A stretch of 63,198 nucleotides of DNA, filler included, from Hausera hauseri (taxonomy: Eukaryota): the NCBI GenBank assembly GCA_046269625.1. It is 12 parts of 12 records of this genome, joined end to end, with 100 filler letters (N's around TTAATTAATTAA, not from the genome) between each part and the next. Parts side by side here need not be neighbours in the genome. Positions count along the whole stretch, not along the records: positions 21,498 to 28,476 come from JBJURY010046887.1; 11 more parts are not named here. One strand, 5' to 3'. Below are positions 10,831-63,198 of the stretch, piece after piece. Every line of letters starts with the position of its first letter. Within the stretch, counting starts at the first letter, position 1. Under the pieces are notes generated by a model. That model searched no databases, was not told the DNA's origin, and saw only the letters and a program-made list of their open reading frames with translations. Position numbers and translations under genes: made by a program.

Positions 10831-13800
10831 TGGAGTTAAATAATAAGCTGAACTGTAATCAGTCCATGAGCATGTAGATAATTGAGTATACAAGACAATA
10901 ATAAAGTGGGCAGATGTAAATTTAAATTGATTACTATTGATAATGACCTTTGACTTCATACTTCATTAACATTTTGAATTTTATACGTTTCATTTCATTA
11001 CAAATGTTGTATGATATTTTAATAACACTTGGTCAATTATATTTGGATACATACATGGAATCACATGCCATCATACAAATCAGAACAATATCCTGAAAAA
11101 CATTGACACCTTTTATTCGACTACAAATAGCATCGGATTCAGATCTTCGAGATTCGTTTTTAATTGCTGAAAAGCTTATTAAAGCTATTATAAAAATTTT
11201 GCCGTCTACAACGTTTCAAGAAAAAACCGAATTGACTACAATGTGGAAAAAAATTATTTGCTAAGCTCTGATAATTCAAATGCCAATGATTGATCACATT
11301 CAATTGGTTTTCACTCATTTTATTTCAGATATCGATAATCTTTTTAAGTGTGTGAAACAAAATGCTGTGTTCTGAGTACAAGAAAACAAACTTGACTGTT
11401 TTACACTTTAGATGACTAATATGAAACATGTAAATAAAAAAATTGAAAAAATCAGTTTCGGTTTCAAAAAAAGCCAATCCGACATTTTACAGATCACAAT
11501 CTTGCGAATATCTCGATCACAACCCTATTGATATTTCATCCAGGTCAGAGTTAGTGCAACTTACAGAATTTCTCGACGTTGAAATCTCGCGTGCAATTCA
11601 AATTTATTCTCCGAGGCATTATTAGCATTTTGCAGTCAGGTCTGTTGTTTGTTTATTAAAACGTTCAGTTCTCATTTACATTTTGTAAGATACTCTATTG
11701 AGTCATTTTTGAAGCATTTGATCGTTAATTCCACGTGAGCATTGTGAAGTGAAATATTTTCTTTAATTCTCAGTCGCTTTGTTTTTCTGGTGTTTGAGGA
11801 GTTTTGATGCAAAACAAGAATTTTCATCATTTGTATAGATTTTTGCTGCCAGAACTTTGATTCAAACTAATCCATTATAGAAATTTCGGGAACAGTTGCT
11901 AAATTTGCTCATACAGAACGATCAGTTTACCCTCATCAACATATCAGCTACATATTCTGGTATTTAACAACTTTTTCTGTTCGGCATACATACATTACGA
12001 ATATTACAGCACAGTGACTTTTGTACATCTCATTTGATTGATGTGATTATCCATTTCGTTTTTCTTGTAACATTTTGAAGCGTCTACGTGAATTGCGTTA
12101 ATTCTGAATTAATTCAGTTTCCTGTATCATTCTGAATTGGTAAAATTTTTTTTGAATTCGAATTTTTGTTTACCATATTGACTATTTAATCTTCAATTTT
12201 CGTTCACATAGTTTAGCTAAAGCTTTTGGGCGGTTTTCAAATAATGAAACGAAAGACAAAATCCAAAGAATCAATGTCTGAATATGGGATTTCAGAGTGC
12301 CCAGTCCGTATTGAAGGAATTGTTAAAGATTTTATTCCAACTCATGATAAATATTACTGGGACACGATTTCTAGTCTTGTTTTGTCGCGTTTCGAAATGT
12401 TTTTTGATTCCTTGCATGTTCAGAAACTTGAAAGATTTATTGCAAAGCTAGTGGATAATTTTGGGCTGACATGCCAGGGACTGATCTCACTCATTAAGAA
12501 AGAATTGGTTCCTGAACGAGCTAGGCCTTTGCGACGAGAAATTGATTTATATCTACTAAACGATTGCAGTGAAAAACCTGCTTATTGAGTATTTTCTTAC
12601 AATTGGAAATCATGGTAGCAGTGAGTTTACCATATTTAATAACGAAACATTGACAAAACCCAATATTGCACCTGCTCTTATCACAAATTTACCAATGACG
12701 TTTCATATTAATTCTTCCGATCTCACCAACGCATTTAAGATGATTTTTATCGAATGTATAGAAAATTGTGATTCAGCCATTTTGAAAAATGAGCAGGATA
12801 TACTTGAATACGTTATGGACTCAATATGAGCTAAGATCAGTATTCTGCCTATTCGTGTTCATGAGGAAAATGCTGCTACCGGAAAGCCAAAAGTAACTTG
12901 GGCACGCTGCGGACCCAGTACGCTTTATTCAACAGGGCGACACTGAGACATTTAACAATAATTAATAGGTGGTATATTACTATTACTGGGTGTTAATTCA
13001 ATTTGATAATTAGTTGTTATAACATTAATGAGTATTACCTTTATGGGCATGTCCGAATGATACGAATTTTCCTGACACTATTTATCGAATTCGGATTTAA
13101 CGTCGCACTGTTGATAATTACGTACTTGATCCGCGACGTGACCAGGTGCACGCATTGTTACTTTTGGCATTCTGGTAACGTTATTCGCCTCATAATCACG
13201 AATGAGCTGAATATTGATATTGGCCAATGTATTATCAATGGCATAATCAAGTATATCCTGCTTGTTTTCCAAAATCGTTGAATCGCTATTTTTTATCAAT
13301 TAAATAAGTCTTCTCAAACGTGTTTAGGAAATTCATGATATTTGAGGCCAACGTATTAAATAGATAATTCAATATGAATACATCAGAAACTAGGTCATTA
13401 TACCATCCAAAAAGAAATGCCATTGATATAAATCCATAAGATGATAGTAAAATATCATAACATTGCATCAGTTGACGAAATATAATTTTTTGTTGTTAAT
13501 AGTGTAATTTCTCTATGTAATAAAGATCCCTGAGAATTAACTGGCGTAGTAAAAATAGAGTAGAGTACTTGGACTCAAATATTCCTCATAAATATATTTT
13601 GAACTAAGAAATTCGTCAATATGGGGGAAAGATTTAAGTTAGACATAAAATGTGCTTTATTAAAACAATCAACGATTTTTCTCAAACGCATAAAACACGT
13701 CACAACAAAGGATAAAAAAGGGGCCAGGAAATCCGGCAACATTTCAGCATGTCAAAATACAAATATACCACACGTGCTAAATATTGTGCAGAACATTAAA

Positions 13801-16715: not shown

Positions 16716-18554
16716 CAAAATGACCACCACATAAGATTCCAAATGGGTTAAATTCAGAGGCGTACTGACACTTTCGCCAACTGGGGCGAGGTAGCCTTCC
16801 AAATTTACCCAATAACGTTTACATTTGTTAAAAAGCAAACGTTTACAGGAGTTTCAGCTCACTACGGCAAGGATTGTGTTCATTTGGCTGACTGATGTTT
16901 CTTATCAGTAAGATCAGAAAGAGACAAACATCTATGATTGGCCATATTTTAAGCTCTGGAGAACTTGCTCACCACGGGCAAAGTACCAGGAAGTAGAAGC
17001 AATGGACGACACAGAATGAAGTGTTTGGTTGGTTTGAAAGAATGGCTCGGAAGTAGGTCAAGAGCAGAGATGATTGGGACACCAGGAATCGCGAGAAATG
17101 GAGATCCATGACAGCCTACCTTCGAGGATGCTACCCGATGATGATGATGCTATGACCACGAGGTTTTCGTGCAACAAATAAACACGTAGGAAGCACACAA
17201 CTGGAAACACACTGCACTTACCATCTAAAGTAAATCCTTCAGCTGCTAATTCCCGTGTGCTTATCCCACAAATCATGCGATTGTTTCCGAAAGTGGAATG
17301 ACGCCTTTCTTCTGTCATGAAGATTCCTGTAGGTAAAGCGATCCTGTCATCCTCGCAAAATGCTTCTGACAAACTCCTGCCTGGCTTCAGTTTTACAACA
17401 GATTCCAGCTCAGATTTTGATTCTTGATGAGAATGCTCGGAGGTATGTGTGTTCTGGTCCCTGCTAGCAGGTGTACATGGTTCAAGTGACTGTGAACTAG
17501 AGGCTGCCATTCCTGTTTTAAACCTATTTCTATTTTAACAAGATCAGTTTTTCTTGGAATATGTTGCTAGTCAAATGTTACTCCCTGAAATGTTTATTAT
17601 TGTACAGCTCTTCATATTATTAGTAAGATGTCAGAGCTGGTGTGTTTTTTTTTAATTAGTTAGATTATGTTTGAGGAAATATCTACGAAATCCCCAAGAC
17701 AACAGTTTTAGAGCTATTGGATTTACACTATATGTCACACGCCTATTCTTGTGTTGGATTGAAACAGTCTGTACCTGCTATGCTCTCTTATTTATGCACT
17801 TAATCGTATTACATTTTTTAGCCCACTCAGTCCCAGTGTTAGTATTCAATGTTTCACGTGACCTGAATGTTTGCCTCTTGTGCCCTGCTCTCTCTTTTGA
17901 GTGTGGTTAAAAGGGTCCTGCAGTATAAATTCTGAAACTCAAGTGGCTGTCAGCATTTACAAACCGATCAGCTTTATGAAACTGGGTGTAACAAACTATC
18001 GACATACATTGTAAAAACTGGAAAATTTACAAATTTGTAAAAAGTGCTAATTAAAAAAAAATGTTCACATTGACTTTACGTATGACAGTCTTTCTACTAT
18101 CTTGAAAACTACTAGAGTGTTCGACGAGGTAGTTAGCAATCAATCCATATCACACGGTGCGCTCGGTTTGTTAATTGTTCAATGTCTCATTCTTACATTA
18201 TCTGCTGGAAGTCTCATTGACTTGGAAAGACTGATGGTTACCCGATGGTCAAAATGGAACCGCACTGGCTTGTGAATTCGGGAATGAACGTTTTAAATTG
18301 TTTATCTTACACGCTCTTAAATCTCTATCTCATCTGTACTCTGTGCTTGGTTACAACTTTTCTTGTCTTCTGTTATGTCTTTTCTACACCTTTTCTAAAC
18401 TTGTTTAAATATTATTGTAGATTTTTTAATCTTATAAAATTAATGATCAGCTGTATATAGTTGAAGAAATACAAACAACAACAACAAAATAAAAACTCCA
18501 GCAGAAAACGTAAATAACAAAATGAAACATATATTCGATAACTTTACTGAAATG

Positions 18555-19974
18555 CAGTGGCGAAGCATGGAATGTTTCAAAGTGTTAGCGTATTACATTA
18601 TTTGTCCAATGTTAACCCATAGATTAAGAACAGTTTTTACCAGAGGATCTTGAAGAAAAAATTCCAATGCTTTCACCAGGATTTGAAATTATTTAACTAT
18701 ATAACTTGAATTAAGAAATAGTTTACCCCTGTCCTCTTGTGGTTTAAACTTCTTAAAGGAAATGAGTGACTAAATAACTTCTATGACTCAGTCCCACCTT
18801 TCCCCATAATAATTTTTAAATACCTAAGCAACAGTAAGTACACATCCGTTCGTCTAAACTCCGACCTGTCAACGGTCGGCGAACTGCTAACAATGTATAC
18901 ACTTCGGCAGTTAATTTTAAGAATAAACATTTTACGGGAATGACTGATAATCACAACAATACCCTAGCGCCCTCCCCTTCAGTGTTAGCAGACAAGAAGT
19001 GTGATTTCGTAGGCTAGCAGTAGGGCTGAAAACAAAGCTTTTTTTTCCTTTTGAAATTGAATGCTGCTTGCCGTAAAATTCTCATCGTTTACAAGAGTTT
19101 TTAAATTTAATTTTTTACATTTAACATTATATATTACGCTCATCTTTTTTCCTTTTTGTAAGCATTGCTAACGCTGTGAACACGGGGGCCTCGCTACCGC
19201 TGAAATGTTCAGCATAAATCCACTTAAATAGACTTAAACGAAGAGAGGCATATACAAAGTGACAGAGAAAGACAGACTGACAGAGAGATGTTTGAATTGT
19301 TAAACGCGTCAACTTTATTTCTACACTTACTTGCGCCTCCATGTTCACAAATTTAGCAATGCTGACAAAAAGTAAAAATAGGAAAATAATATATAATGTC
19401 AAACATAAAAAACTAAATTAAAACAATCTTGTAAACGACGAGAATTTTACGGCCAGTAGCTCTCCACTGAAAAAGGAAAAAAAAAAGCATTGCTGTTAGC
19501 CCGTGTCAGCACTTCTCCCTCGCCCCTTTCTATCAACGTTAGCATGTTAACTTGGATGCGGTGGTGTGCTGTGGGTATTATTGTGATTATCGCTCATTCC
19601 CGTGACGTGTTTCCTTTATAAAAGTAGCTGCCCGCAGTTAACTCAATGTTAGCGAGCTTAGGAAATGCTTACAGGTCAAAGTTCAGTTCAATGCTTGCTG
19701 CGTTTAAAAATTATCACGAGGGAAAGGTGTGACTGCATTATAGGAGTTACTTGGTCCCTCATTTCTTTCAAGAAGTTTAGACCAGAAGAGGACATAGGTA
19801 AACTATTTCTTAATTTAAGTAATATAATAAAATATTTTCAAATCCTGGTGAAAGTACTGGAAATTTTTTTTCTTCTCGATACTCCAGTAAAATCTGTCCT
19901 TTGATCTATGAGTGTGACATTGGACAAACAATGTAATGTGCTAACACTTTGAAAAACTCCACGCTCCGCCACTG
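18555..19974. mobile_element. ~1.4-kb non-autonomous foldback DNA transposon with CAGTGGCG termini (hAT-like)
   Basis: The left arm from 18555 aligns to the reverse complement of the right arm ending at 19974 over most of the element. Examples are ctttcaccaggatttgaaa, aattaagaaatagtttacc and gccgtaaaattctc.tcgtttacaaga. The 8-nt flanks match only 5/8. Confidence 0.85.
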
Positions 19975-20364
19975 CTTACTTGCAATACATGTTGTCATCA
20001 AACAGTGCATGGATCTTGCATATGTGTGTACATTAATAACATGTGGCCAAACAAAAATCAGAAAACATCTGTTTCACATATCATATCACACACTACCATT
20101 TCTGTTAATTTCTTCTAATTTCATTCTAACCTCTAAATTACACTGGGCTAATGATTTATTTTTCAGAAGAGTACTTACAATCACATCCCATAACTGTTTA
20201 TATTCATTTGTCCTGGTTTAAGCATACGGTTCTTTAAATAAAACGGAATTGTTTTAAGGAAAGGAAAGAATCACTAATGACAGTTTTTTTTTAAATGTGT
20301 CGTAATACACAGTGCTTGGAGAGAATTCCGGGGTGCTATATTATCCCTCTGCCATCTGTGCTTA

Positions 20365-21497: not shown

Positions 21498-22344
21498 ATC
21501 TCGAACCATCAGAAGATATCTAGCACTGATGAATTTGAAGAGTCATATGGCTGTAAGAAAGCCATTTGTAAATGCATGGCAATTACTCAGGCATATTAAT
21601 TGTGCAATAGCTTATCTCCAAAAGCAAATGTGCTTTTGAAAAATACTTTGTTTATAGATGGGTGTTCCATTCCACTTTTCAGTTGTGGAAACGAGTATAC
21701 AGAGGCCCTAATGAGACTTTCTTACCACAGCATTTCCGATCCACGGTAAGTCATGACGGATCTGTTATGGTATTGGGATCGTTTTTCTACAAAGGTGTAG
21801 GACAAATGAGGATTCTTGAGCCCGGATGCAGAATGAATTCTGCTTGGTATTGTTCAATCCTACAAAAGGAGGTGTCTAACACCTTGGAGGAACATTCAGG
21901 TGGGTCTGCCAGGGCTAATTTTCAAGATGACGGGGCACTCGGCCATTGATCCCTGTTGGTGAGGAGAAAGTGCCGACAGCTTGGAATTTCGCAAATACTT
22001 TGGCCAGGGCAAAGCTCCGATTGTAATCCGATTGAGAATATGTGGTCATTCCTCAAAACCAAGGTGCAAGCGCATTGTTCACGAATTTTGAATGAACTGA
22101 ACTCAGCGATTCTATGTGTGCGGTCTCACAAGATTCCACTATGATATTGCTAGGGCCTTGTAAATTCCATGCCTTCTCGATTGAAACTCGTCGTCCAGCG
22201 ACAAGGCTTCCCAATAAAGTATTAGGCATTTGTACCATTCTTTATTCATTACTTAAAGATTTGCTTGTTTGGTGGCTTAAATTTTCTGAAATTACAGAAA
22301 ACTTGCATTTTGGCTTGATGTTCTTAATTTAATGTCCGGCACTG
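21498..22344 (+). mobile_element. Tc1-like transposon, 3' part with degenerate DDE transposase and right TIR
   Basis: SRTIRRYL..RKPF / TVSHDGSVMVLG.F..KGVG / FQDDGALGH / WPGQSSDCNPIENMWSFLK. The element ends ...AATGTCCGGCACTG followed by TA (22345-22346). Confidence 0.9.
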
Positions 22345-22346
22345 TA

Positions 22347-22420
22347 AATTTCGATGATTGATCCCGCATCAATTAGTGCACAGACTTCCCAGACGTCAAT
22401 ATAAATTTTAGTGAAGGCCT
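22347..22420 (-). pseudogene. Retropepsin-like aspartic protease N-terminus, truncated by the Tc1 insertion
   Basis: GRP[frameshift]FTKIYIDVWEVCALIDAGSIIEI. The DAG codons GAT GCG GGA (22362-22370) are one transition from DTG. Confidence 0.6.
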
Positions 22421-22789
22421 TCCTTCTATTATTGTACCTCGCATTTCATTCATTTTCCATCATACACCATAGTGTTTTGTTACTTCATAAGGGTCCTCAA
22501 AATTAGATGGTTTTCTACAGATTTCTGTTTGATACGATCGCTTATCACAGTCTTCGAATACTGATGCGGTAGAAAGTAAGATTGGCAACAGAGGTTTTAT
22601 GATGGAATATGCTTTATGTCTATTTATTCTGAAGACGGCGTTTCCTCCCTTAGGCTCGTCATTATCTGAAATATTTCTTCGCGTCATTGATTTCTCAACC
22701 TTGCGTTTCAGTCGAAATATGAGTCTTGCTCGAAGTTTATAATTATAGTAGCCGACATGGCGTTCAACGTCATTTTTCCATCGATTTTC

Positions 22790-24581
22790 TTCGTATGCTT
22801 TAAGTATTTTACCAAACGGTATGATAATTGCTGTTAAAATGTTACAGGAAAATTCTGTTAGCGTGAATATTTCGTACCCATTTATAACCGCTTTAATTAC
22901 CAGATGTAGCTTGTTCAAAAATTAAAAATCTTCCCCATATTTTGTAGAGTATTTCTGTGGTTACCCGTTGGTAATGGTTCTCACCAAGCAAGGATTCCTA
23001 TTTAGCCTAATATCGGGTATCGTCTACTACTGATGCCAAGACTCGGTTTAATTGGTGTGTTTGCTGTCGTGCAAAAGCAAGAAATTGTCGAAAAGCTTTG
23101 ACCTCTTTTGGTCGATAAATGTTTTTTGAAACGTATCTTGGAACTTGTCGTCAGTAATGCCTTTTGCTAAATTAGTTCCAGTTAGTTTTTTTAGGAATAA
23201 TAGTGACACTTCCATTGGGTAAGCTAACCCAATCCGTTTCGCTACGCCTAAACATCGGTTCACCCAAACTTGCTTTGTAATCCTTTAATATTGTAGGTTG
23301 TGTTGCGTTGTCTAGCAATACTATAGTGAGAGGCATGGCTAATCGTGGAGTGTTTTGGTGGATTACAGGTAACTCTTGTATACATCGCTTTTCTTCAACC
23401 TTAATTGGTACATCGCTTTTCTCGCATTCATAAGTTAGTAGAACTTCACCAGTAACTCGACCAAAAATTCCTTCTCTCATGGGAATGATCGGTGATGCTA
23501 ACTCCGAATTCTCATAAATAAGAGCTAATTTTGTTCTCATAATTTCCGTATCCAGCTTGCAGTCATTAGTTATCATTTTGTGGTATAGTTCGACTATTCC
23601 GACTTGTCCTTTATAATAAAAATAATCGTTTCGGTTTTTCAGATAGTCTTCGATTCGAATGTTTTGCGTTTCTAGGTTGTATGTTTTTGCGTTTATCTCC
23701 GTTTCTGCGACGAAAAACGCTTCGTAATTAGTGGTGAACATTACTACTTCACATCTTGAAATCATTTCCTTTCTGATGAATTTCAATCAATGTTGGTCAG
23801 GGACTAATATCGTAGGTGTATAATGCTCTGATACGTCTTCACGTGCTCTTGAACTGATGTCGGATTTATCTACGTATGGTTTCTCGGTAGTTTCCTTAAA
23901 TTTCAATTCTTTGATCTTAATAAATTTACAGGCTTTCCCGGTAGGCGGTTCCCATATGACGACAGAACTTCTGAAGGCAGAAGTTCCGTCTTGCATGTGA
24001 CATTTTTGATTCTCAGTATATAACTTAGTGATGCTATGGAACATTACTTTTTGGACTCGAATCTTGGATTCGTAAAAGTCTACTACTACTACATTTACTT
24101 CCAATCCTTTTCCGGTATCGTATTCCGTTCCAATACAGTGCCCGTTATTCATATTTAGCCTTCCGGCTACAATCTTATACGCTCTGATTATTTTTCCGGG
24201 CTGCATTTCTAATTCCATGCTATCGCATTTCAGTCTTCCGGTTTCTCGGGCTTGCTTACAATGTTGTCTTTCCACATATATTGGAATTGAAAGGGTTGTT
24301 GGTTTGATTAATGAGAAATGTCCGTGCATCAGTCCACAATGGAAGATGCTACAAGATCTTCTCAGCATACATCCCATGCCATCCAAAGATATCAACTCTT
24401 GTTGTTGGTATAGAAAATAGGTCTTCTCTTTTGTTTCCAGTTTATGTGGTCTGGCATCTTCACATGCTTCTAAGTCCATTAATGAATACTTTTGTCCAAG
24501 TTTGAATCTATCACAATCGTAAACGGTAACAGCACCCATTTGTTTTATTAACATCATTATGGTGAGCAAACTGATTAACCA
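22790..24581 (-). pseudogene. Chuvirus/Jingchuvirales-type fusion glycoprotein (env-like), ~600 aa, decayed
   Basis: Signal-like WLISLLTIMMLIKQMGA|VTVYDC..YSLMDLEAC, then C.L.RS.SIFHCG..H.S, C..A...G, GHCIG, VIW......C, C....TTNY, Y.....C.L, GEVLLTYEC...V......CIQELPV......P.T, PMF.....W and KIWGRF.IF...SG / INGYEIF....FS..ILTAI. This matches the cysteine and motif pattern of chuviral glycoproteins. Confidence 0.8.
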
Positions 24582-25299
24582 ATTAGATTAGTTCTTCAGG
24601 TTGTTGTTATTTGTTGTCGTCAAGTTGCGTATGACGTTTTCGAGTCTATTGTTATTTCTCTTGTCTTCTTCCTTGTCAAACAATTTTGGCCAATTTACTT
24701 CACACGGGAGTTTTCTAGACTTTTTACGTGCCAAACTCGTAGCTCGATTTAGTTCATTTTCTCGATTAGGATTTGTCTTAATTGCCAAATACAATAATAC
24801 TTTTCTCAGCTCTTCTATCGCATTATACACCATGATCTTCTAGACTATTGCGTCTTCAGTTAGGCTACTTTTTGACAGTCTGAAACGCGAACTTCTCACT
24901 GTTCTAGCTGAGTTAAATATTGCCTTTTCTTTCTCGTCTAATGTACCTCCGCGGAGACTCGAATAATTTACGATACGTATTAAATTTTTTCACTAACTCG
25001 CTTAATTCTTTATTATCTGTACTGAGAATAGGAATCGACACTTATCTTAATTCTCTAATTAGTTTTCCGTTATAGTCAATTTCTTCTCGGGTCTACGTGG
25101 GTCTGCCTACTGGGCGTTTCGGTTTCGGAGCATTCGTTGGCATTCAACTTAATGGTACTAAATTCTTGTCATATTGCTCTTTGTCTTCATCCGTTTGTAA
25201 ATACTCGAAATACATTGCAGGGTCTCGTACTCCCCAGATTTGTCCTACTCATTGTTCCGTTTTAGCCTTCCGTGTGGCTTCTTCTTTCGTCTGTTTATT

Positions 25300-25525
25300 G
25301 GCTATTATTGCTATTATCCGATTTGTTTTGTCGGGAATAATTCCGACATCTATTAACTGTTCTAAATCGTCGAGTATTCTTCCGCTAAAGTAAAATCTGT
25401 AATTTAGCTCATTTGTTCCGCCATTATTTAGTAACCATTCTCTTACATCCTTTACGTAGGACTGAGTAGTTAACTCATTCTTTTTTTTCCATCCAGTCGG
25501 ATGATATCATTACTTTTATCACTAC
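25300..25525 (-). other. Ubiquitin-like domain within the retroelement polyprotein (copy 1)
   Basis: VIKVMISSDWMEK[fs]NELTTQSYVKDVREWLLNNGGTNELNYRFYFSGRILDDLEQLIDVGIIPDKTNRIIAII, compared with ubiquitin [21 protein letters not shown]. Confidence 0.65.
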
Positions 25526-28126
25526 ATCAGGTTTAGTTCTCAGAATATTCGCATACTTCTTTATCAGGACTTTTGCAACCGTGTTGTAAATTGCATTCTC
25601 ACTAGATAATTTAGTTAAGGTCTGAGCTTGTTTTCAGTCATTCACATTAATTGATTCCATCATGTCCTTCTCGGCCAATGCTAAGTCTAGGATCATCTAT
25701 ACATTGAATTTCCTGTTCTGCGGATACCTTTATATTTCTTCTAGGTTTACTGGAGTTCCCGAATTTTCGGCCGTTATTTCTTCTAAATAAGCATCCCATT
25801 CTGGTTTATTCGCAATATCTGGAAGTCCATAGTCTACTAGAGCTGTATTCGTCCTTTGGACATTTTCTCGAATTTCTCTAAATTTTGGTTGTATTTCTTT
25901 CATCTGCGTAGTTCGGAATCCTATTCCGCTTCCACAGGCATATTGAATCATTTTCAATAATTCGCCTAACTCGTTAGCATTGATAAATCTCTTTTGGTGA
26001 TAGTCGGTTAATTCCATAATTACATCTCTTTGCCATCTCTGCACAAATTATTGTTTATTTTTAATTTCTGATTCCGTAAAAGTGTATTTGTTCCGGTAGC
26101 TTTCGAATTCTTTTACTAGTTCATCTAGCCTTGTTGCTCTTTGTTTCGTTTTAATGCATGATTCTTCAACTTGTTGTAGTTTGGGAATTAATTGCCTCAT
26201 TCTTTTATCTAAGATTTCGATGTCTTGGGCAGAGATCTTATCGATTGGTTTTTCCGTTAAGTATTGGATTCCTTCTAGTCCAGCAACCTTCAACTTTGAG
26301 TTTACATCGTAAATCATGTTCCGCTTTTCCATGAAGTTCGGCTCTTCGATCAATTTATAAATCTCCAATATCGACGTTTCTTGTTTTCTTTTCATAAATT
26401 TTAGCCGTCTTAACGCTTCGAATTGGGTGCGGATATCTATTTCTATTTTCATTGTGCCTAGATCATGTGCATTTTCTTCTAGCTGATTCTTTACCATTGG
26501 TTCGCTTTGCGGAAATTCTTTTTTGCGGTCTTCTACTAACTTGCTTAGTCTGTTTACTAACTCGGACCATTCTGGCAATTGATTTCCGATAACTGGTTTC
26601 GCCATTATAGCCTTATCTAACATCTTATACGCGTTTTTTAACTCATCGTCGGGCCCTCTTAGGAAATTCATAATCCGACCGACATAACTAAACTCATCCT
26701 TATATTCGTCCAGTTCTACAATACAAGCTTTTATTACGTATTGAGTTTCCTCATGGTTTGGGAACATAATTCGGTTTCTTAAACTATTAATCTGTGATCT
26801 TTATCATTCTGCATTTTGATGCGGCTCTCTAAGTCCGCACATCAACTGTTTTCGACAAAGGCAAATTTTATCATCTCCATTAAGGGAGGAATATCTATCA
26901 GGTCTACACCCAATATCTCAAAATCGATACAACTTCGATCGCTAACCGTTTTTCCCTAAGCCGATTAATCATTGCACAGCGAATTTCATCCATCATACGT
27001 TCTAAATTACGGACTACTCTCTTCAGTTTTGGGTTTGTTTCCAAGGTAGACAGTAGTGTTTGAGCCTTAGCAACTTTCACATCAATACTATCTTCATTTT
27101 TACTCCATCCTTCTGAAAATTCTACACCACTTTTAATCCACTAGTCTAATTCGTGGTTCCATTTTGTCAACGTATCTTGTGGTACCTCTTTCGGTTGTCT
27201 TACTTCAATTGCTTCATCGAGTTTCCCTTCACTCCACAATCTTAAACTCTTGTATAATTTCTCCGCAAATTGTTGTTCCTTGCCAGATATATCTGTTTGT
27301 TTACTAATCTGCTTGAGCCTTTTCAAATTGTGTCTGAGTATTTCTGGATTGTGACATTTACTTCTCATCCTCTTTAATTCTTTAGCATTTTTTCATGAAC
27401 GTCGAACTTTCCATTTTCTCGCATCATGGTCATTATTATTGCCCGTTTCTTCTTCACTAGCGGGAAGCGGACAAATTTCGTTTATTTCCTCATTAACATT
27501 TTCCATCTCTGGAGTTTCTAACACTTCTGGAATCCCTATAGGCGCAATAGAAATCCCTGAGGGCGAGTCATCTCTTAGGATAGCAGTATGGAAATCTTTT
27601 TTTCTTCTGTATCCCTTTTAATGGGAGATTGTGAACGAGTCTTAGATTTTCACTTAGGCGATGGGCTTCTACCTCTATTCTTCGTTATATTGAGAACTAA
27701 GGGCCCAATAAATTTACTTTTGACTTCGTCTATTTTTTCATCTGGATTATGCGTCGCGGCTTCTATTTCCGTATTTAAATTTACATTTTTAGATGTCGAT
27801 GGTTTCTCCGATTGTGATATTCCTTGCGAAATAGACTTCTTACGCTCCATATTAGTATTATTTGGCGCCAATGCCCATTCTTCTTCGGTCTGTGGTTCTT
27901 TTAATCTATGATAAATTTCCATTAGTCGTAATTTCTTTTCATATTATTTTCTAGCGTTCATGACTTGAGAATTAGTAGTTTCCCTTAGATTTCTTACAGA
28001 TATGTGTAAATTTTGCATTTCGATAATCAGGCTTATATCTCCTCGTTTGCCATAGATGGCTTCCAAGTTATTCTTGATCATACTTGTTTTGTTTGGTTCA
28101 GTAAATGTGACACTTCTAGGATTTGG

Positions 28127-28168
28127 GCATGACCTAGCAATATGACCTTCTTTTTCACATGTAAAGCA
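28127..28168 (-). other. Gag CCHC zinc knuckle (copy 1)
   Basis: CFTCEKEGHIARSC, preceded by an R/N/D-rich nucleocapsid-like region. Confidence 0.95.
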
Positions 28169-28576
28169 AATTAAATTTTCATTTCGACTAATCCTTTTCT
28201 GACATCTTTATTCACGGGTGATTTTGACCTATTTGTGTTCTTATTCTGACTCTGGGATATTTGTCTGCTATCTCCATCATATCGATTTTCGTTACTTCGA
28301 TTCTCAGTGTGTTTAGCATTAGGTCGGTAAACACTTTGGTTTTTATCTCAACTGTAACTCGGTTTATTATACGAGTTGTATATGTTTCAATTACTAAAAT
28401 TTCTATCATTTCTTTGATTTCTATTTTGGGCATTTCTATTATCTTTTCTATTTCGATTATTGCGGTCATTATTCCTNNNNNNNNNNNNNNNNNNNNNNNN
28501 NNNNNNNNNNNNNNNNNNNNTTAATTAATTAANNNNNNNNNNNNNNNNNNNNNNNNNNNNNNNNNNNNNNNNNNNN

Positions 28577-29394: not shown

Positions 29395-32300
29395 ATGCAG
29401 TTTTACAAAGATCATATTGCCCATTTGGCAGAATTCAATTCAAAGCCAAAGAAGGCAATATTTAATAAGCAGCATCTTGCTGTGACAGCACAGCTAGTTG
29501 TACAGCCTGCTTTAGCAGCAAGGCCTGATGCAAGACCAAAACGCCTATCAGAAGTAGCAGCAGATGCTCAATCAAAAAGTCAAAGACAGCGGCCAGTTGA
29601 TGCAGTTGCACTGAAGAGCAAAGTTCGGCGATACTTTGTATCAGCAATGGGGCAGACATCGCTTTATGAATTCCTGCAATATTCAAAGGAGGTGGCAGCA
29701 GGAATTCTCCAGGACAACTTGTTGGAGCTGAAAGCCCTTAAGGTGAACTTTAAATTGGAAGCCACCTTCACCAATGTTAAAGGAGAGCTGTCTAATAAAA
29801 CATTCAAGACAAAGAACAGGACACTATTGAAATCCTTTAATATTAAGGATTTAATTACTGAGGACTATGCAAGGCTCATTCGCAAAGCCGAAGAAGGCCA
29901 GGACAAGAAGAGTGATGGGACTTTAGCAATAATAAATGGGTTACTTGTGCATGTGCAAAAGTATTCTCCCATGAGAGACAGGGTACTACATACCGCTTCC
30001 TGAATGGATAGTTAAGAAAAAGGCATGTATCCGTGTCCATAATAATGACAACATGTGTTTCATGTATGCCATTTTATCAAAACTAGTCCAGGATTAAAAT
30101 AATGCTTCGCGAGTTTGGATATATGACAAAGTGCAGCACACATACGACTTCAGCTGTATTTCATTCCTGCCGAATCTAGATGAAGTCGTGAAATTTGAAA
30201 GCGTGAACATCTCAATCAATATCTTACGATTGGAGGAGGAAATATTTTGTCCATTACATGTGTGCAAGGAGGAATTGGAGGATCATAGGAATCTACTCCT
30301 GCTAGATGATGGAGAAACGAGGCATTTCATCTGTATCAAGAATTTTGAGCTCCTCGTAGGATCCCAAATATTCAAGCATAAATCAAGGCTGGAAATATGC
30401 AAGAGATGCTTTTCCCATTTTAATGGGGACACAGCCGCAGAAAGGCTGGTGGAGCACAAGACTTACTCTAATACAAACCACTGCATCCGAGCAAAATTCC
30501 CCAAAAAGGATTACCTGGAATTCAAGGAGTTCGAGAAGATGCAGAAGGTGCCGATTGTCGTCTATTGTGATTTTGAGACCATTCTCAGCCAAGTTCACAG
30601 CTGCATCCCTAATCCTCAACATAGCAGCACAACAGCATACCAATATCATGAACTCTCATCATATTGTATGTATGCCAAAGGACTGGACAATGAACCATTT
30701 CTATTCAGAGGGTCCGACGCAGCAGCACATTTTATGAAGAGATTAGACGACATGGCTCATAGGCTTGAAAACATTCTTCAGCAGCATAAGGATACAATGA
30801 GCATGTCGAAGAAACAAGATGAATGGTGTAAGGCAACAAGTTAATTGTGCGACAAGTCCTTCACGAAGGATAATTATAAAGTCAGGGATCATTGCATTTT
30901 ACAGGCAAATATCGAGGTGCAGCATGCAACAACTGCAATCTACGTTGCAAAACATACACATATGTGCCTATAGTGTTCCACAATTTCAGCGGTTATGATT
31001 CCCACTTCATTGTTCGGGAACTGGGTAATATTGAGGGGAACATTAATGTCATTGCAAACAGTGAAGAAAATATATCACCTTCACTAAGCATGTGGGCCGC
31101 ATTAAACTTTGATTCATAGACAGCTTCCGCTTCATGAGCTCGTCACTGGATAGTTTAATGAAGAACCTCCCTGCAGAAGAACTCAAGGAGACGAAGTGGT
31201 TCTTCCCCACTGCATCTGACCTCGTCAAGAAAGGCGTGTTCCCCTATGACTATGTAACGTCATGGAAAGAACTGGATGAAGATGCATTACCGGCCGAGGA
31301 GGATTTCTATAGTCAGTTGTCATCCAGTCCTATTAGCGATGCTGACTATAAGCATGACCAAAGAGTATGGCAAACCTTCCAGCGCAGGACAAGAGGAGAA
31401 TACAGTGATATCTATCTCTTCACAGATGTGCTGCTACTTACAGATGTCTTCTAAAGCTTCCGGGATGTGACCCTTAAGACCCACAAGTTAGATCCAGCCC
31501 ATTTCTTTACAACTCCAGGAATGAGCTGGGCGGCGATACTGCACTATACGGGCATAAGGCTCCAGATATTGAAGGATTACAATATGGTCCTCATGGTTGA
31601 GAGAGGCATCAGGGGCGGAATCAGCCAGGCCATTCACAGCTACAGTGAGGCCAATAACAAATACATGGCAGATTATGATCCATCAAAGGAATCCTCATAT
31701 ATGTCATATCTGGATGCCAACAACTTGTATGGATGCGCAATGAGCAACCCATTGCCCTATGATAACTTCAAATGGGTCAAGAATCATGAAGACATCCCAA
31801 TATTGAACCTAGATTCCATTGGAGATACGGGCTATATACTGGAGGTGGACGTGGAATACCCACATAGCATCCACGCAAGGCATGAGCAGCTGCCATTTCT
31901 GCCGGAAAGCAGGCCTCTGCCCCATGGAAAGCATAAGAAGCTGCTCTATTACCTCGAAAACAGGGAGAGGTATGTAGTCCACTACATAAATCTCCAACAG
32001 GCCATCCAAAATGGACTCCGAGTCATCAGGATTCATCGGGCCCTGCGGTTCAGCCAGTCCACATGGCTGAATCCATACACAGACCTCAATACCCAGTTGA
32101 GGGCCAATGCCAAGAACGAGTTTGAAAAGGACCAATTCAAGCTGTATAATAACTCAGTATTTGAAAAACTATGCAGAACATCCGGAACCAGATAAACATC
32201 CAGCTGGTATGTGACTGGAAGAGAACAAAGAAACTCATCGCTAAGCCCAATTGCCACAGCTGCACAATCTACACAGAGAACTTGGTGAACATCCATATGA

Positions 32301-32885: not shown

Positions 32886-33607
32886 ATATTGTTATTCATT
32901 GTTATTCTTTGTTTAATAAATGTTGTATAGAAATACTGTATTTTCTTCTTGATCAAGTAATGTGGGATATAGGATAAGGCCAAGTAAAACTAAGTAACTA
33001 CTATATAGGATAAGACCAACNNNNNNNNNNNNNNNNNNNNNNNNNNNNNNNNNNNNNNNNNNNNTTAATTAATTAANNNNNNNNNNNNNNNNNNNNNNNN
33101 NNNNNNNNNNNNNNNNNNNNTTCATGTTCGTCTATGTACTAACTATCTTCCGAAGGAATCTCTTTAAGACGGTCGTTTCAGCCTTGCTACCTACAAACAG
33201 AGGTTCGTAATTTATACTAGTTCCGATTAATTCGGTTTCATTCTTGTCGTATTTGTCTTTCACATTAACCAGGTCCATTGATCGCAATTCTTGCATTAAT
33301 TGTGGTGTTGTTAAGAACCATAACTTTTGCAGAATTATTAATTTTTGTTCCCGTTTGTGAGGAGGAATTGAAACGGATATTGACGTTTAAATTCAATTCA
33401 AAGTTAATTCAATAAATAGCCAATAGAAAGTCAGGAAATTCAGAAAAGAAAGAAAATAAGTCTCATTTCCCCAGTGAAGGAGATAAATGTTATATAAAAC
33501 TTATAATAAATCTCTTATGGATAATTCTATTTAACAATCTTCAAGTGACGTTGAGGTCGGGATGGCAGAGACTCGATCTACTTACATAACTTTTGCGTCC
33601 CCATAAA

Positions 33608-33833
33608 TATTAGGGTTCCCAGACTTCAAGAAGGAATTTATTCTGGATACCGATGCTAGCTTCAATACGATTGGAGTAGTTTTATCACAGAAAGGCATTA
33701 CCGGGTATGAAAGAGTGATTGCATACCGGTCACACGGAATAAATAATTACGAAAAGGGCTATTGCATTACACAGAACAAGTTTCTGGATATGTAGTACTT
33801 CTGTCAACATTTTAATCATTACTTCTCTGAGTA
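33608..33833 (+). mobile_element. Ty3/Gypsy RNase H fragment
   Basis: ILGFPDFKKEFILDTDASFNTIGVVLSQ....ERVIAY.S......EKGYCIT. Confidence 0.9.
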
Positions 33834-36260: not shown

Positions 36261-36400
36261 ACGACTACTCTTAGATAGTAAACGAAGAAACCGTTAAGAT
36301 AACGACCAGAAGAGGGACACCATACAAGTTAGGTTCGGACGACAATTTACCATTCGGGTTAGAATTTTTAAACAACTTAAGCGAAGAGGAAGAGAACGGA

Positions 36401-37105
36401 ATGGCAAGAAACGAACACAACGTAGAGCAGGTGATACAGTCAAAAGCTGACTTCACCTTGCCCATGAAGAAGTTTTCAGGAAAAGAAGACGTACAGGATT
36501 TTATCATGGAATACGAGGTATATTCAAAAAGTTTTGGATGGAATGACCAACAACGAATGGAGAGGTTACCTCTCCATTTAAAGGGAACTGCATTAACGAT
36601 TTACTTCCAGATGCCAGAAGAGGATAAAAAGGATTGGAAGACTGTCAAAGAAAAGTTACCTCAAAAATTTCTGGTAGATCCTTCTGGTAAAGGAAGGATA
36701 GAAGAATTTATACGAAGGAGGCAACGAAAAGATGAGACAGTACAGGATTTTGTCTGTGCATTGGAAAAGTTAGCCGCAAGGGCTTATCCGGATGCAGTAA
36801 TAAGAAGTAACGCGTTGTTGGCCCAATTCCAATATGGATTAGAAGCAAGGTTAAGAAGTATTATACTACAAGCTGATCCCTCCACGTTTCAAGAGGCAAT
36901 CAGGAAAGCCCGAAAAGCTGAGCGGGACGCGGAATTATATAAATGGACCAAGTCGAAAGAAAATACAAATAATTATAAACGAAAAAACAATAATAGTACT
37001 CAAAGATATCAGAGATACGATAGAAACCGAAGCCCTTCGCAAACGTCAGCTACAGAGGCTGAGTCAGATGTGGAGAAGAAGGTAAGGTTTAAGTTAAAGA
37101 ACCAT
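36401..37105 (+). CDS. Ty3/Gypsy gag (capsid) ORF, open to the contig end
   Basis: FSGKEDVQDF..YE......GW......LPLHLKGTA...F / RRQRKDETVQDF...L..LA..AYP / QF..GL...P.TF.EA...A..E. Confidence 0.9.
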
Positions 37106-38553: not shown

Positions 38554-41271
38554 TTATTTCTTTGAATTTTGCGTTTTTCTATATTTCTTATCACTATCGA
38601 AGTCTGAATCCTTGTAAACGTGTGGAGCAACTTCTGTCAACCAACGGGGCTCAATGCGCAGACAAGTTCGCATGAATTCTTTCTCCGTTTCCACTATAGT
38701 ATTATAAACTACGTATCGAGGAGAATCTCGTGGATGGTCTTCGATTATTTTGAAAACACACGTTGGATGCATGTATACGCAATCTTTTGATTTGATTCTC
38801 CGATAACAATCGCCGCTGAATCGAGCCGTATTTATAAAGAATCCGGCTGTTATGGCTTTTCTGATATTGATGGTGTTGTCCGGATCTGACGACAGTTTCA
38901 ATTCCAAACGATCAGCCAATCCAATCAGCTGGTCACGAATGTTTCTGGCCATTTTCATTGACCGTGACTGAATATAGTTTTCTTTGCACCATTCACTGGA
39001 GAACTCACTATGTGCATAGCCATTGTACACATTCAGAAGAGTCAAGTGATCACCGTCTTCGTTGAGAAATGCCCGATGAGCTTGTGATGCAAATAATTTC
39101 TTGTCTTTCGGTGAATAAAAAATCGTGTTATCCAAACTTAGCATGGCTGCGATCGTGATGATTTCCTCCGAACAATTGTACTTTTCTGATGAGATAATCA
39201 TCTTGGAAATCATAGGATCGCAGGGGATCTCTACCATTTTTCTTCCACACAATGACAATGCTCCTTTCGGATTGATAGCGCCGAGATGATATAATTCAGA
39301 CAATGCTGCGAAGATATTTCGTTCGCTGGGCCGATCGAGAAATTCAAACTGCATTATATCGTCGATACCCAAACTTTTCAGCAGTAAAACGACGTTAGAA
39401 ATATTCGTCCGTTGAATTTCCGGAATGGGTTGGTCTTCAAACTCTTCTTCAAATGTGCATTTCTTGTACAGACGAAAACATTTTCCTGGAGCAACTCGTC
39501 CAGCTCGACCAGCACGTTGAATTGATGATGCCTTCGATATCGGAATGACTTCCAGTGCGTCCATTCGAGATTTTGCATCGTAACGCTTCTGTTTGCAGTA
39601 ACCGCAGTCAATTACGTATTTGATACCGTTGATCGTAAGCGATGTTTCCGCGATATTCGTCGCTAGTACTACTTTTCGAGCACCGGGTGGCGTTGGCATG
39701 AATATTTTCGCTTGTTTCTCACTGGGCAGTGATGAATAAATCGGCAGAACAATCAATTCTCTAATCTTATTGCCAAGTGCCTTAATTCTGTCCTGAATTT
39801 CATCCATAGCTCGTTCTATTTCTTCTTGTCCGGTGACAAACACCAGTATATCTCCTTCTGGTTGTGTGATGTGAATCTGGAACACAGTTATTACTGACGC
39901 ATCAACGTAATCCGGCTCCTGATCTTTTGTGTAATAAATTTCAACGGGATATCGACGGCCGGGGATTCTGAATATCGGCCCATGGAAATAATCGGCGAAT
40001 TTCTGTGTATCGCACGTTGCCGAACTAATGATCACCTTCAGATCTTTCCGTTCCTCCATGATTTCCCGCAGTAAACCAAAAATGACATCGGTCTGCAGAG
40101 TCCGTTCATGTGCCTCGTCAATGATAAGTACCGAATAAGTACTCATCAATGGGTCAATGAGAAATTCCCTGAGCAACATTCCATCAGTCATGTATTTAAT
40201 CAGCGTATCGTCCGATACTCGCATTTCAAATCGTACTGAATAACCAACTTTATCGCCAAGTTTGACATTCATTTCTTGTGCTACTCGTGTCGAGACAGAC
40301 ATTGCAGCTACTCGTCGTGGTTGGGTACAGCCGATTTTCATGTTGTTTGCACAGAATCCTTCTTCGTAAAGGTACTGAGGAATTTGCGTCGTTTTACCCG
40401 ATCCGGTCTCTCCCTCGATTATGATTACTTGGTTCTGTCTTACCATTTCGATTAATTCATCTTTCAATTTGTATATTGGCAGGGATTTGCGGATTTCCTC
40501 AATTGTCATGTCTTTTTCCTGGAAGACTTTTTGTTTCTCTTTCCCGTCGTCGCCATCATTGTTATCCACTAAATTCACATCACCAAAGTTAATAAATTCG
40601 TCCAATAAAATATCGTATTCGATGTCACTTGTCTTCTTCGGTTTCTTCTCTCCGACACCAGTTTTCATCTGTCGGGCTTCCCACTCATTCAGTCCCCCAC
40701 GCTTCGATCTATCCTTTTTCTTTTCATCCCCATAATCATTTAGAATTGTCGACTCATTCGAAGGCATCGTGTAGTATTTTTCCTTCGTTGATTTGATTCC
40801 TTCTTGCTGCAGTTTTGCAACCCTCAGCAATAATTTCTTCGTTTCCCGATCATCTTCTTCTCGTTTCGTCAATTTGTCATTTTTAAAATAAATATCTTCT
40901 TCTTTCAGTTCTTGTTCCAAATCTTCCAGTTTGTCAATCCGTCGTTTGTCCAAATATTCGAAACGAGATTTCTTACGCAGTTCTGTGGTTATTACGTCCT
41001 TTTCGGCATTTTTCGACAACAATGTGCGATTTCGCTTTTCATCAGTGTAACTGGGAACGTACGATTTGGATTTTGCTTTATCTTTGCTTGTAATTTTTTT
41101 ATCAAATTCTTTTACCTTCTCGGATTCTTCTCTGTTTCGCTTTTCTTCGGCAATGTAATCGTCATCCAAATTCCCAGTGTCGTATTTTCGTTTCCTAAAT
41201 AAAAGTAATGAAATATTGAAAATAAAGAATGATTTAACTTACGTATATCTTTTTTCGTTATATTCGTTCAT
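38554..41271 (-). CDS. DHX16: Pre-mRNA splicing DEAH-box helicase DHX16/Prp2; exons 41271-41243 and 41194-38554 (~890 aa)
   Basis: Helicase motifs are GETGSGKTTQIPQYL, TQPRRVAAMSV, DEAHERT, SAT, LATNIAETSLTI and QRAGRAGR. The DHX16-type N-region reads RKKSRFEYL.KR...KLEDLE. A 48-nt GTAAGT..TTTAG intron (41242-41195) joins ATG 41271 in frame. Confidence 0.92.
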
Positions 41272-54395: not shown

Positions 54396-55119
54396 TATAT
54401 GTTTTGAATTTTTGATAATAGGTTCAATTTTATTAATCTTACTAGTCCGGATATTTTTTAAATGAAAATTCCTTATACAAGCACTGAATTCTGTGCGAGA
54501 AAAACCACAATTACATAATGCGAGCTTTTAAATATTATGCAATTTTGCACTTCTTCAATTTCCCCCTAACAATCAAATGAGTTTTGAAATTCATGTTATG
54601 CCGAAGGACAATGTATTTGTCTAACAAGAACACGAATTTTATTGTAAATTTAGATTTTAGAGATGTAAAATATGTTGATTCATATAAGGGTGTTGCAAAT
54701 GTTACCGGGGACTTTTACATAAAAATTACATTTTACAAATTCTATGGTCTTATAGAAAATTCTATACCTTTGTTTAAATGTATCAATTACATTCTTAATT
54801 CTAGAAATTGCAATTGCAACCGTTGCTTATTCGTTTTACAGTATCATAGTGCGTGATGTATGTAAGATGGCTAATAATTTGAGATTATTATTATCAAGTG
54901 TGTTTGTCAGCATGATTGAGGGTTTGATGAGCATTANNNNNNNNNNNNNNNNNNNNNNNNNNNNNNNNNNNNNNNNNNNNTTAATTAATTAANNNNNNNN
55001 NNNNNNNNNNNNNNNNNNNNNNNNNNNNNNNNNNNNCACCGCCAGATGCCACTGCACACTCTGGTAGAGGCACTACCGCTAAATCTTCTGGCCGTCTTAA
55101 CACCGCCTTTGCAATTTTT

Positions 55120-59120: not shown

Positions 59121-62100
59121 AACTTTTCTTTTTTGTTTCTAATTTGTGTGGTCTCGCGTTTTCGCACATTTCTAAGTCCATTAATGAGTATTTTTGGCCA
59201 AGTCTAAATTTGTCACAATCATATACTGTAACTGCACCCATCTGTCTTATTAACATCATCAAGGTCAAAAAGTTGATTAGCCAGTTCGATTCATTTCCTC
59301 TGTGATTTCCGGTTACATTTCGTAGCAGATCTTCGAATCTATTGTTACCCAAGATGAATCTACTTTGATGTTATTCTTCTTTTTCGAATAACTTCGACCA
59401 GTTCACTTCCCAAGGTAGTCTTCTTATAGCCCTCCTTGCCAAGCTAGTGGCCTTCTTGAATTCATTTTCTCGGTTTGGGTTAGTTTTGATGGCCAGATAT
59501 AGCAACACTTTTCTTAATTCTTTCATGCTATTTTCCGCCATAATTCTCTCAATCACCACTTCATCGCTTAAGGTACTTCTGGATAATTTACACCGAAAAC
59601 CCTTCATGGCCTTGGCGGCATTAGATATGGCCTTCTCTTTTTCGTCTAATATATCAGCGCCGAGACTAGAGTGGTTTACTAGTCGTATCAAATTTCTCAT
59701 AAGTTCGAACAGTTCCTCATTATCCGCACTGAAGGTTGGTATGGACATTTGCCTCAACTCTTTGATTAGGTCTCCATTATAGTCGATTTCTTCTCGTGTC
59801 TTCCGTGGTCTACCGACAGGACGCTTCGGTTTTGTTACAATGGGTACACTGCCATTGATAGGTACTAAATTTTTATCGTATTGCTCATTATCTTCGTCTG
59901 TCTGCAGGTACTCAAAATATACTGTCGCATCTCGGACTCCTACTATTCGTCCTACCCACTGTTCTGCTTTAGCCTTCCTTATAGCCTCCTCCTTTGTTTC
60001 GTCGATAGTAATGATTACCACTACCCAGTTTACTTCAACTGGAATAATTCCGACTTCTATTCATAATTCCTATTCATCTAGTATCCTTCCTCTAAAATAA
60101 AGTCTATAGCTCAGCTCATGGGCGTATCCGTTGCTCTTTATCCACACTAATACATCTCTTATAAGGGAACGCGTAGTGAACTCTTGTTCCTTCTCGTCCA
60201 TTCAATCAGATGTTATCTTTACTCGGATCGTCTCCTCTGCCTTTGCCTTTAAGATTTTAGCATATTCTTTGAGTAAAAGCTTAGGTGCCGTACTATAAAT
60301 CGTACCTTCGCTAGCCAGTTTAGTTAGTGAGGTTTACTTCAATCAACTTAATTAAATCTTTCTCGGTTTGTGCTGGGTCCAGAAGAATTCCTACATAGAA
60401 TCTTTGGTCCGAAAAATATACCTCCATTTCATCCAATCGTATGGGAGTTTTCGGATTCTCGGCCATCATTGCGTCTAAATATGCCTGCTATTCTGGTTCG
60501 TTTTCCTCATTCGGCAGTTAATAGCCCCTTGACGGTATATCAGTTGGTCCACCCACACCTGCAATCTGTATGGTTTTTCTGAGTTCTTGTAGCTTCTGTT
60601 GCAATTGGACCATATTCGTCGTTCGGAAACAGTGCCAATTAGCAGAAGTTTGGTGTAGCAATGTTAACAACGAACATAATTCTTCAGCCGGGATCAGTCC
60701 TTGTTCTTGATAGCCTGTTAGTTCGGAAGTGACATCTCTTTGCCACCTTTGCACAAATTGTGACTTGTCAGCCCTTTTTGCTTCTGTAAGGGCGTATTTA
60801 TTTTTATAGACTTCGAGTTCTCTAGTTAGTTCGTCTAATCTCATCGCTGTCTGTTTGGTCTTAATGCAAGTTTCTTCGACTTTCTGTATCTGCTGAAACA
60901 ATTGCCTTAATTTCTCGTCACTAATTTCTGCCATTTCCGCCATCAATAGTGTTAATTCATACATCTCGTTAATTCTTTTCGAATCTGGATCTATCGCATC
61001 TAGTAACTTTTTTACAAATTTGGTTTCTTCAAAGCTAAGGTGGTGGTCGTTCTTTATTTTAATGAGCTCAGTGTTATGCCTTTAATATGTTCCTTCCATC
61101 CATCCTTGTGGATGGTGTAAGAGCTTCACCATTTCTTCAACGACTGACCGATATTCGGGACAAAAGTCCAAGGTTTTAAGATCTCGAATCGAGATTTCCT
61201 CGATAGGCTTGGCTGTCAAATGTTGGATTCCTTTTAGGCGGATATCTCTTAATCTCGGATAGAAATCGCAAGTCGCATTCCATTTCCGCATGAAGTTTGT
61301 TTCTTCGATCATCTTATATCCATAAAGCCCAATTGACGCAATGCCTCGAATTGAGTTCGGATGTCAATTTCTGCTTTCAAAGTGTCTAGATTTCTGGCGT
61401 CTTCTTCTAATCGCTTCTTTACTGTAGGTTCGCTCTCCGAAAATTCTTTTTTTCGACTATTTATTAATTTACTCAACCTTGTTATTACTTTGGATCATTC
61501 GTTCAACTGATTAGCGATTTCTGGTTTTGCCCATATGGCCTTGTCTAACTTTGTGTGAGCGTCCCACTTTTCATTCAGACTCCCAGTTCGCGTTTCCATT
61601 TGACTAGTGTTTCTTTTGTCACTTCCTCAGGTTGATCTAAGTCTATAGCTTTGCTTAGTTTCCCTTCACTATATAATTTCATCTTTTTATATAATCTCTC
61701 TACAAACTGTTGTTCATTGCCAGAAATATCCACTTGTTCACTTATTGCTTTGAGTTTCTCTAGATTCTGTTGGACTACCTTTGGGTTGAGACAATTTATC
61801 CTTATTCTTTTTAATTCGTCGGCATTTTTCCACGAGCGTCTGATTTTCCAGTTTTTAGGGTCGAGTTTCTCCTTTTGTTCTGTTTCCTCTTCGCTATTAA
61901 GTAATGGACATATATCGTTTATTTTGTTTACAGATTTCGTTAGCTCATCCGTTTCGCCGGACGTAACTAAATTAATTTCTGGAGTGTCTAAAGCGAATTC
62001 TGTGTCGTTCCCCAACGCGATTTCAGTCTCTCTCCTTGTCTCTGATTTCTCCTTGATCATTGGGGATCTCAAACGATCCTTACGTTTCCGTCTCAATGAT

Positions 62101-63198
62101 GGACTACGACCTCTATTCTTGGTAATTTTGAATATTAGGGGTTCCAAAAATTCTTTTTCTTCGTCGATCTCTGTCTTTTTGCTTACCCTTTTCATCATAT
62201 GTTCTGGTTCTACATCTAAATCTACTTCATCCGGGATCTCAGGTTTTCCTGTTTCGTCTAACTATTTGCTTGTCGTAGGAATGTTCTTTTTCCGCGCTAA
62301 ATTAGTAAGACTTGGTGGTGCAATGGAGCATTCATATTCCGTTTCCGGTTCACACAAGCCATGGTAAACTTCCAGTAATCGTAATTTATGTTCATACTCG
62401 TTTCTGGCTTCTAAGACTTTAGGATCTTTAGTATCAGGTTGGGCCTTCAAAAAACGTCGCAAGTCCTGCATCTTAATAATCATACCTATGTCCTTACGGA
62501 CACCATAAATTGCTTCTAAGTTTTCGTTTTTAATTACACTAGTTTTGCTAGGTTCCACAAACGAGAAACTTCGCGGATTTGGACAGGATCTCGCTATATG
62601 TCCTTCTTTTCCACATGTATAACAAATTAAGTTGACATTTCTATCGACCCTTTGCCGACCATCCTCATTTAACGGAGATTTCGATCTACTCGGGCTTCTA
62701 TTATAACCTTGATGTGACGGGAGTTGCCTAGGGTCTCCATATTGGTGATTATCGTAATTTCGGCTGTCATTCTGTCGATTTCCATTATTAAAATTTTTGG
62801 AGCCATCTGGACGTTTATCCGTATGATAGTTTGATTTACTAGAAGAACTATTTCAACTGTTATCACAATTCTGACTATTATACGATTGTTTCTGCGATCA
62901 TAATGCACGTTCTTGTTCCGATCCCCATAATTCTTATTAAACCGTCGATCATTTTTGTCGCCCCGATTTCGATCGCCCCGATCATTATCTCTATCGTTTC
63001 TGTCACCGTCTCTGGCATATTTATCCAATGCCATTTCTAAGTTCTGAGCTAATTGCAATGCTCGGTCAAAGTTCTCTGGTCTGGCCAGGATCAGTTGCTT
63101 GACTATATCTTTAGACCAAATACCATTTATTAACTGCGTCATCATCATGACGTCCAGATCTGGAGGACTTGTCTTTTCTGCGGCTTCACATTCTGCTT
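59121..63198 (-). mobile_element. Copy 2 of the gag/UBL/AT-hook/chuvirus-glycoprotein retroelement (truncated by both edges)
   Basis: Contains Gag QLINGI....VKQLILARPENFDRALQLAQNLE, CCHC CYTCGKEGHIARSC (62583-62624), UBL ~60010-60232, AT-hook KRPVGRPRK ~59797-59832 and glycoprotein start MGAVTVYDCDKFRLGQKYSLMDLEMC. It is collinear with 24430-28476. Confidence 0.85.

Follow-up and report, generated by a model that had tools for sequence, protein, structure and literature searches.

Does the glycoprotein gene of this retroelement stand ahead of pol, and is the short coding stretch that separates it from a neighbouring Tc1 transposon the beginning of a protease? The locus lies on one contig (21498-28476) of the window, by which we mean the whole 63,198-nucleotide stretch of Hausera hauseri DNA that was analysed, in which spacers separate 12 short contigs. 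The retroelement takes up 6.1 kb of this 7 kb contig, the edges of which fall within gag and within Tc1 (Table 1). In the first-pass annotation, a protease motif at the transposon border was offered as the key evidence that env precedes pol. We agree that in this Ty3/gypsy element env comes ahead of pol, but not on that proof: the motif does not establish the order, which follows instead from the polyproteins of relatives in the same clade, since all that are long enough carry protease, and seven also reverse transcriptase (RT), behind the glycoprotein in one polypeptide. We consider it very likely that the locus is a decayed Burro-type Ty3/gypsy copy that comprises gag, accessory domains, a chuvirus-like env and a likely protease start, and that was likely interrupted by Tc1 at a TA dinucleotide.

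Table 1. Features of the retroelement, the adjoining Tc1 element and the paralogous element, in window coordinates.
Feature	Position	Strand	Basis
Tc1/mariner transposase, broken, 5' part beyond contig	21499..22141	+	HTH_Tnp_Tc3_2, Transposase_1, DDE_3
3' terminal repeat of Tc1, outer end	22336..22344	+	Sequence; partner end beyond contig
TA at the junction, likely Tc1 target site	22345..22346	.	Sequence; one TA copy on contig (contig starts 21498)
Likely first retropepsin lobe, Asp codon 22370-22368, non-canonical middle triad residue	22347..22415	-	Matrix rank 1 of 126,260
Glycoprotein tail and linker; stop 22462-22460; frame break near 22413-22415	22413..22921	-	Stop tally; profile match
Frame break at the relatives' membrane-anchor site; anchor absent in this copy	22899..22910	-	Profile positions 16-25 unmatched
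Env, a chuvirus-like glycoprotein; 563 codons with 5 stops	22899..24587	-	PF24664 E 8.6e-17 and 3.4e-17; tblastn of relatives
Ubiquitin-like accessory domain	25252..25506	-	PF00240 E 0.0099, under cut-off
Long frames of the accessory region (250 and 105 codons), probably coiled coil	25733..26800	-	Weak coiled-coil-type Pfam matches only, E >= 0.09
Gag C-terminal part, CCHC zinc knuckle 28168-28121	27947..28207	-	PF00098 E 5e-6; matches gag of relative P0011, E 2e-5
Paralogous element: gag knuckle, accessory region, glycoprotein start	59121..63198	-	67-71% DNA identity, 4 segments; PF00098 E 1.8e-7

A search with the glycoprotein against 1.84 billion representative proteins returned 130 matches, the best relatives being polyproteins of up to 3243 aa (cluster members reach 4844 aa). 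Among the 89 proteins of at least 400 aa, 87 match the window's glycoprotein, and the 68 that score above 60 bits entered a quick tree of 69 rows. In this tree the window's glycoprotein falls within a 20-row clade that holds 19 relatives (SH-aLRT 99); its branch is long (1.66) and the relatives are distant, at 23-31% identity. A protease motif stands behind the glycoprotein on the same chain in 14 of the 19 clade members (11 after three near-identical pairs are merged), and the remaining five end 29-184 residues past the glycoprotein match, too short to tell. The motif is found behind the glycoprotein in none of the other 68 of the 87 matches. According to Pfam, seven relatives extend to RT and RNase H and six to integrase; six show all four pol domains in the order protease-RT-RNase H-integrase, which is the Ty3/gypsy order, an array that is absent from this contig. 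No BEL/Pao-specific Pfam family was among the matches of the 14 env-protease relatives. In 5 of 13 relatives, the chain also includes a gag knuckle ahead of the glycoprotein.

These proteins are almost anonymous: no name is attached to 15 of the 16 cluster members listed, and none of them is a named Burro sequence. One 2627-aa env-pol polyprotein (P0003) is recorded as hypothetical in a Flavobacteriaceae metagenome-assembled genome, where it is likely animal DNA. In four relatives (P0131, P0011, P0004 and P0005) there are up to seven protease lobes per chain, some of them behind integrase, together with further hydrophobic segments. Longer glycoprotein-bearing proteins were sought by shared words and found among none of 863 candidates, and none of 14 stretches matched viral contigs. 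A metagenome contig (L001), hit by 1 of 78 stretches, was rejected as a relative, being a 23-base chance match in DNA of 57% GC with no match to the 89 relatives.

The stretch at the junction runs for 23 codons without a stop on the minus strand (22415-22347) and is cut 7 codons past the Asp, ahead of where a retropepsin has its flap and C-terminal Gly-x-Asp helix. Its reading frames are as the first-pass annotation had described them: the tail frame (22921-22463, minus strand) is open for 153 codons, meets a single stop at 22462-22460 and continues to ~22413, and the protease-like stretch sits in the neighbouring frame, with a non-canonical middle residue in its triad. The tail-frame ORF thus exists in this copy, but it has no counterpart as a separate ORF in the relatives, where glycoprotein, tail and protease form one chain; for this reason, the stop and the frame break seen here are likely decay. 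The odd triad residue, together with the occurrence of one to seven protease lobes per relative (13 relatives), might mean that in the same element the protease directly behind env is dead throughout the family, a pseudo-protease with a structural or regulatory role, and that the active protease lies further on. We regard this as improbable. All 30 true lobes in the 13 relatives are canonical (the last of 31 lobe-like matches is likely a false match), a count that, like the scoring matrix described below, was built on lobes first chosen by the canonical-triad pattern and is therefore biased toward canonical lobes. Moreover, in a copy with at least six stops and two frame breaks between 24587 and 22347 (minus strand), one more substitution is to be expected. 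Given the canonical triad in the lobes of the relatives, the odd residue is most simply explained by decay.

A second alternative is that the motif arose by chance, in which case the locus would be a piece with gag and env, its pol having been lost or located elsewhere, and Tc1 would merely border it. The expectation that protease profiles would recognize the peptide was not borne out, as the 34-codon piece matched no Pfam family at E <= 1, and it matched no PDB sequence at E <= 10. Under a HMMER profile of 24 lobes from the relatives, the stretch ranks first in the window, but with 4.9 bits, a score reached by 3 of 40 shuffled windows. Chance would accommodate these results; it fits poorly with those from an ungapped matrix of the same 24 lobes, in which the stretch scores 18.8 bits and ranks first of 126,260 positions, a score that no shuffle reached (100 of the whole window, 2000 local). 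On this matrix, 23 of the 24 true lobes score 18.5-45.4 bits when left out. Most of the signal comes from 13 residues around the Asp, the 15 residues ahead of it being weak on their own (they place 30th, and their score is reached in 100 of 2000 local shuffles). Chance would also have to place the motif at the spacing predicted by the relatives: it lies 176 codons past the anchor point at which the relatives' glycoprotein alignment ends, compared with 119-202 codons in eight of nine relatives and 379 in the ninth, and a protease is present there in every clade member that is long enough. We therefore give the chance explanation very little credence. The lobe motif alone is weak evidence; matrix score and position taken together indicate that it is likely real, and we read 22347-22415 (minus strand) as likely the first lobe of a retroviral-type aspartic protease.

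The least probable alternative, that env and pol occupy separate frames in the living family and are joined by programmed read-through or frameshifting, finds some encouragement in the stop and the one-base frame change just ahead of the protease, where other retroelements recode, but it is contradicted by 14 of 14 long relatives that are uninterrupted from glycoprotein through protease, by similar breaks throughout this copy, and by the test for slippery sites: its sole match falls within the protease stretch, beyond the break, and the frame break has no heptamer of the tested form. Stops and frame breaks alike are probably decay of one long reading frame rather than recoding, and this copy would formerly have been such a frame, now dead.

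On the contig, a gag knuckle stands ahead of the glycoprotein, stops and frame breaks interrupt what follows, and the end of Tc1 meets the retroelement at a TA. A single gag knuckle was detected in this copy, and the distance from knuckle to env is ~1215 codons here versus 233-625 in five relatives. Between the two, the long accessory frames share 69-71% DNA identity with the paralog, and the ubiquitin-like domain is the window's best match to a profile of three relatives' segments (E 0.017), the paralog ranking fourth. A BCL2-like match was found in relative P0010 (PF00452, E 0.001); the window yielded none, either with Pfam or with a two-sequence profile, the region being broken. A hydrophobic, signal-like segment lies at 24578-24522 (minus strand), and the glycoprotein was traced by tblastn with the relatives down to 22899 in one frame. 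The membrane anchor that is present in 11 relatives is absent near ~22900, where the frame shifts, and at this site two contigs of sequencing run X1 have 39 letters more. Just beyond, the tail (22909-22793, minus strand) matches the post-anchor segment of 11 relatives (E 9e-4), and tail and linker together have no Pfam match. Since the paralog stops at the start of env, at a contig edge, the junction is not covered by it. The paralog also holds a 229-codon open frame (59374-60060, minus strand) that separates its ubiquitin-like domain from env and has a weak AT-hook match (E 0.13); AT-hook-like motifs occur ahead of env in 4 of 13 relatives.

The protease-like stretch does run straight into a TA and a Tc1 end, as had been claimed, but the coordinates needed correction: the Tc1 end is at 22344 and the TA at 22345-22346. 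The terminal repeat was identified from its sequence; Tc1 ends read CAGTG inward. The transposase on the plus strand matches HTH_Tnp_Tc3_2 (E 0.042, 21499-21636), Transposase_1 (E 0.2, 21611-21946) and DDE_3 (E 4.2e-6, slightly under the curated cut-off, 21950-22141). No sign of an LTR end was seen at the junction, and a cut within a coding domain without such a sign fits Tc1 having jumped into the retroelement. Judged from the sequence of this junction, Tc1 was likely inserted into the retroelement at this TA. In run X1, 16,039 contigs match the contig at 21498-28476, mostly at below 95% identity (one run, possibly of the source organism itself, 0.33 of words), suggesting that the family is large and diverged there. 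Summed depth in the run is ~1,000-23,000 over the retroelement versus 36-141 over the Tc1 side, depth not being equivalent to copy number; the bin that holds the junction (22197-22429) has a low depth of 36, and among the 6 loose ends listed of 1,735, none falls at the junction.

Several described elements resemble this one. Burro/GYPSM1 of planarians is a giant gypsy-like element (over 20-30 kb) with env in frame between gag and pol, an env like mononegavirus fusion glycoproteins, ubiquitin-like and Smc-like domains, a BCL2-like domain immediately ahead of env, and an ORF1 of 4,873 aa with ankyrin repeats (PMC6431247). Here, too, a mononegavirus-like env lies between gag and protease, gag is of the CCHC type, and a ubiquitin-like and coiled-coil accessory region precedes env (the ubiquitin match being weak in two tests), and relative P0131, at 4844 aa and with an ankyrin match as well as a C2H2 match, is comparable to Burro ORF1 (PMC6431247). 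The two differ in that Burro has two or three knuckles where one is found here, and in its BCL2-like, MATH and BIR domains, which were not found here; the section on Burro does not mention several protease lobes, and the comparison is one of description, not of alignment (PMC6431247). By analogy, the element would work like Burro.

Chary and Hayashi describe GAG-ENV-POL errantiviruses with an HSV/gB-type ENV in Nematoda, Bryozoa and Platyhelminthes, the nine flatworm rows of their data being Macrostomum, Prostheceraeus and Schmidtea (PMC13524379). These share with the relatives the Ty3/gypsy pol order and a gB/chuvirus-type env before pol, but they are described as ORFs; a term search of the text finds no "fused" or "single ORF", a point on which the figure supplements may bear (PMC13524379). 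The same paper cites Sacco et al. 2022 for non-canonical nematode ERVs in which env precedes pol in a metavirus (PMC13524379); the host here is not placed with nematodes. In arthropods, gypsy fragments are described beside Jingchuvirales glycoproteins (PMC10084718), and the Anakin BEL/Pao elements and Jingchuvirales glycoprotein EVEs likewise tie a chuvirus-like glycoprotein to an LTR retrotransposon (PMC10084718, PMC7642597). The relatives found here differ from Anakin in carrying RT, RNase H and H2C2-integrase of the Ty3/gypsy type, and stand-alone glycoproteins fall outside the window's clade. Unusual though it is, the env-before-pol order is already in print (PMC6431247, PMC13524379), and the locus is likely one more, broken, example of it.

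Other contigs of the window carry unrelated features. A DHX16/Prp2 gene (38554-41238, minus strand) is an uninterrupted, intron-free frame of 894 codons that shares 50-56% identity with named, full-length proteins of animals and 70% with a single unnamed protein; this intron-free gene indicates an animal host. A quick tree of 37 rows, built with 36 of the 120 listed matches, puts it on a very long branch and, at a split with SH-aLRT 86, on the side of the flatworms, a placement that is not reliable. A separate, broken gypsy pol with protease, RT, RNase H and integrase (55037-59020, plus strand) lies outside the env-pol family and was rejected as the missing part of our element, as it has its own protease start and its RT-RNase H is 29-42% identical to that of the family, whose seven members are 47-79% alike. 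A DNA_pol_B_2 match (31455-32192, plus strand, E 3.6e-11) is likely a Polinton/Maverick piece. One further contig holds both an RNase H piece (33592-33825, plus strand) and a Ty3 capsid gag (36275-37102, plus strand, E 4.5e-8) that is 25% identical to that of relative P0006. A 660-base inverted repeat at 73% (18554-19975) and a 560-base decayed palindrome (12747-13307) are likely MITE or foldback relics.

How would the intact family produce and separate its proteins? On a simple hydropathy scale, exactly one hydrophobic 19-mer lies between the glycoprotein start and the first protease in 12 of 13 relatives. A hydrophobic segment is also found just ahead of the glycoprotein in 7 of the 13, as well as in the window, and extra segments occur deeper in pol of several relatives. 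In membrane proteins, an internal signal leads to entry into the ER, and a single anchor leaves the downstream chain in the cytosol. In the env-pol polyprotein, the internal signal segment would route the glycoprotein into the ER, where signal peptidase would cut it from Gag, and the one membrane anchor would return the chain to the cytosol, so that protease and Pol would at first be the cytoplasmic tail of the glycoprotein. The element's own protease would then free protease and Pol. Retropepsins act as dimers, and the tandem lobes might therefore pair intramolecularly.

A literature search returned no report on tandem proteases or processing in such elements, subjects that Grohme 2018 and Sacco 2022 may cover. 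We raise it as a tentative idea that the clade packages its polymerase via Env and not via Gag, that up to seven lobes could pair in-chain to release Pol without a Gag-Pol lattice, and that the clade reaches beyond planarians into a fast-evolving animal in which it may be very abundant.

Overall, the locus itself is less useful than the clade to which it leads, a well-supported group of env-pol polyproteins, nearly all unnamed, that carry one to seven protease lobes. We suggest that the predicted topology would force a route of Pol into particles other than the usual Gag-Pol fusion.
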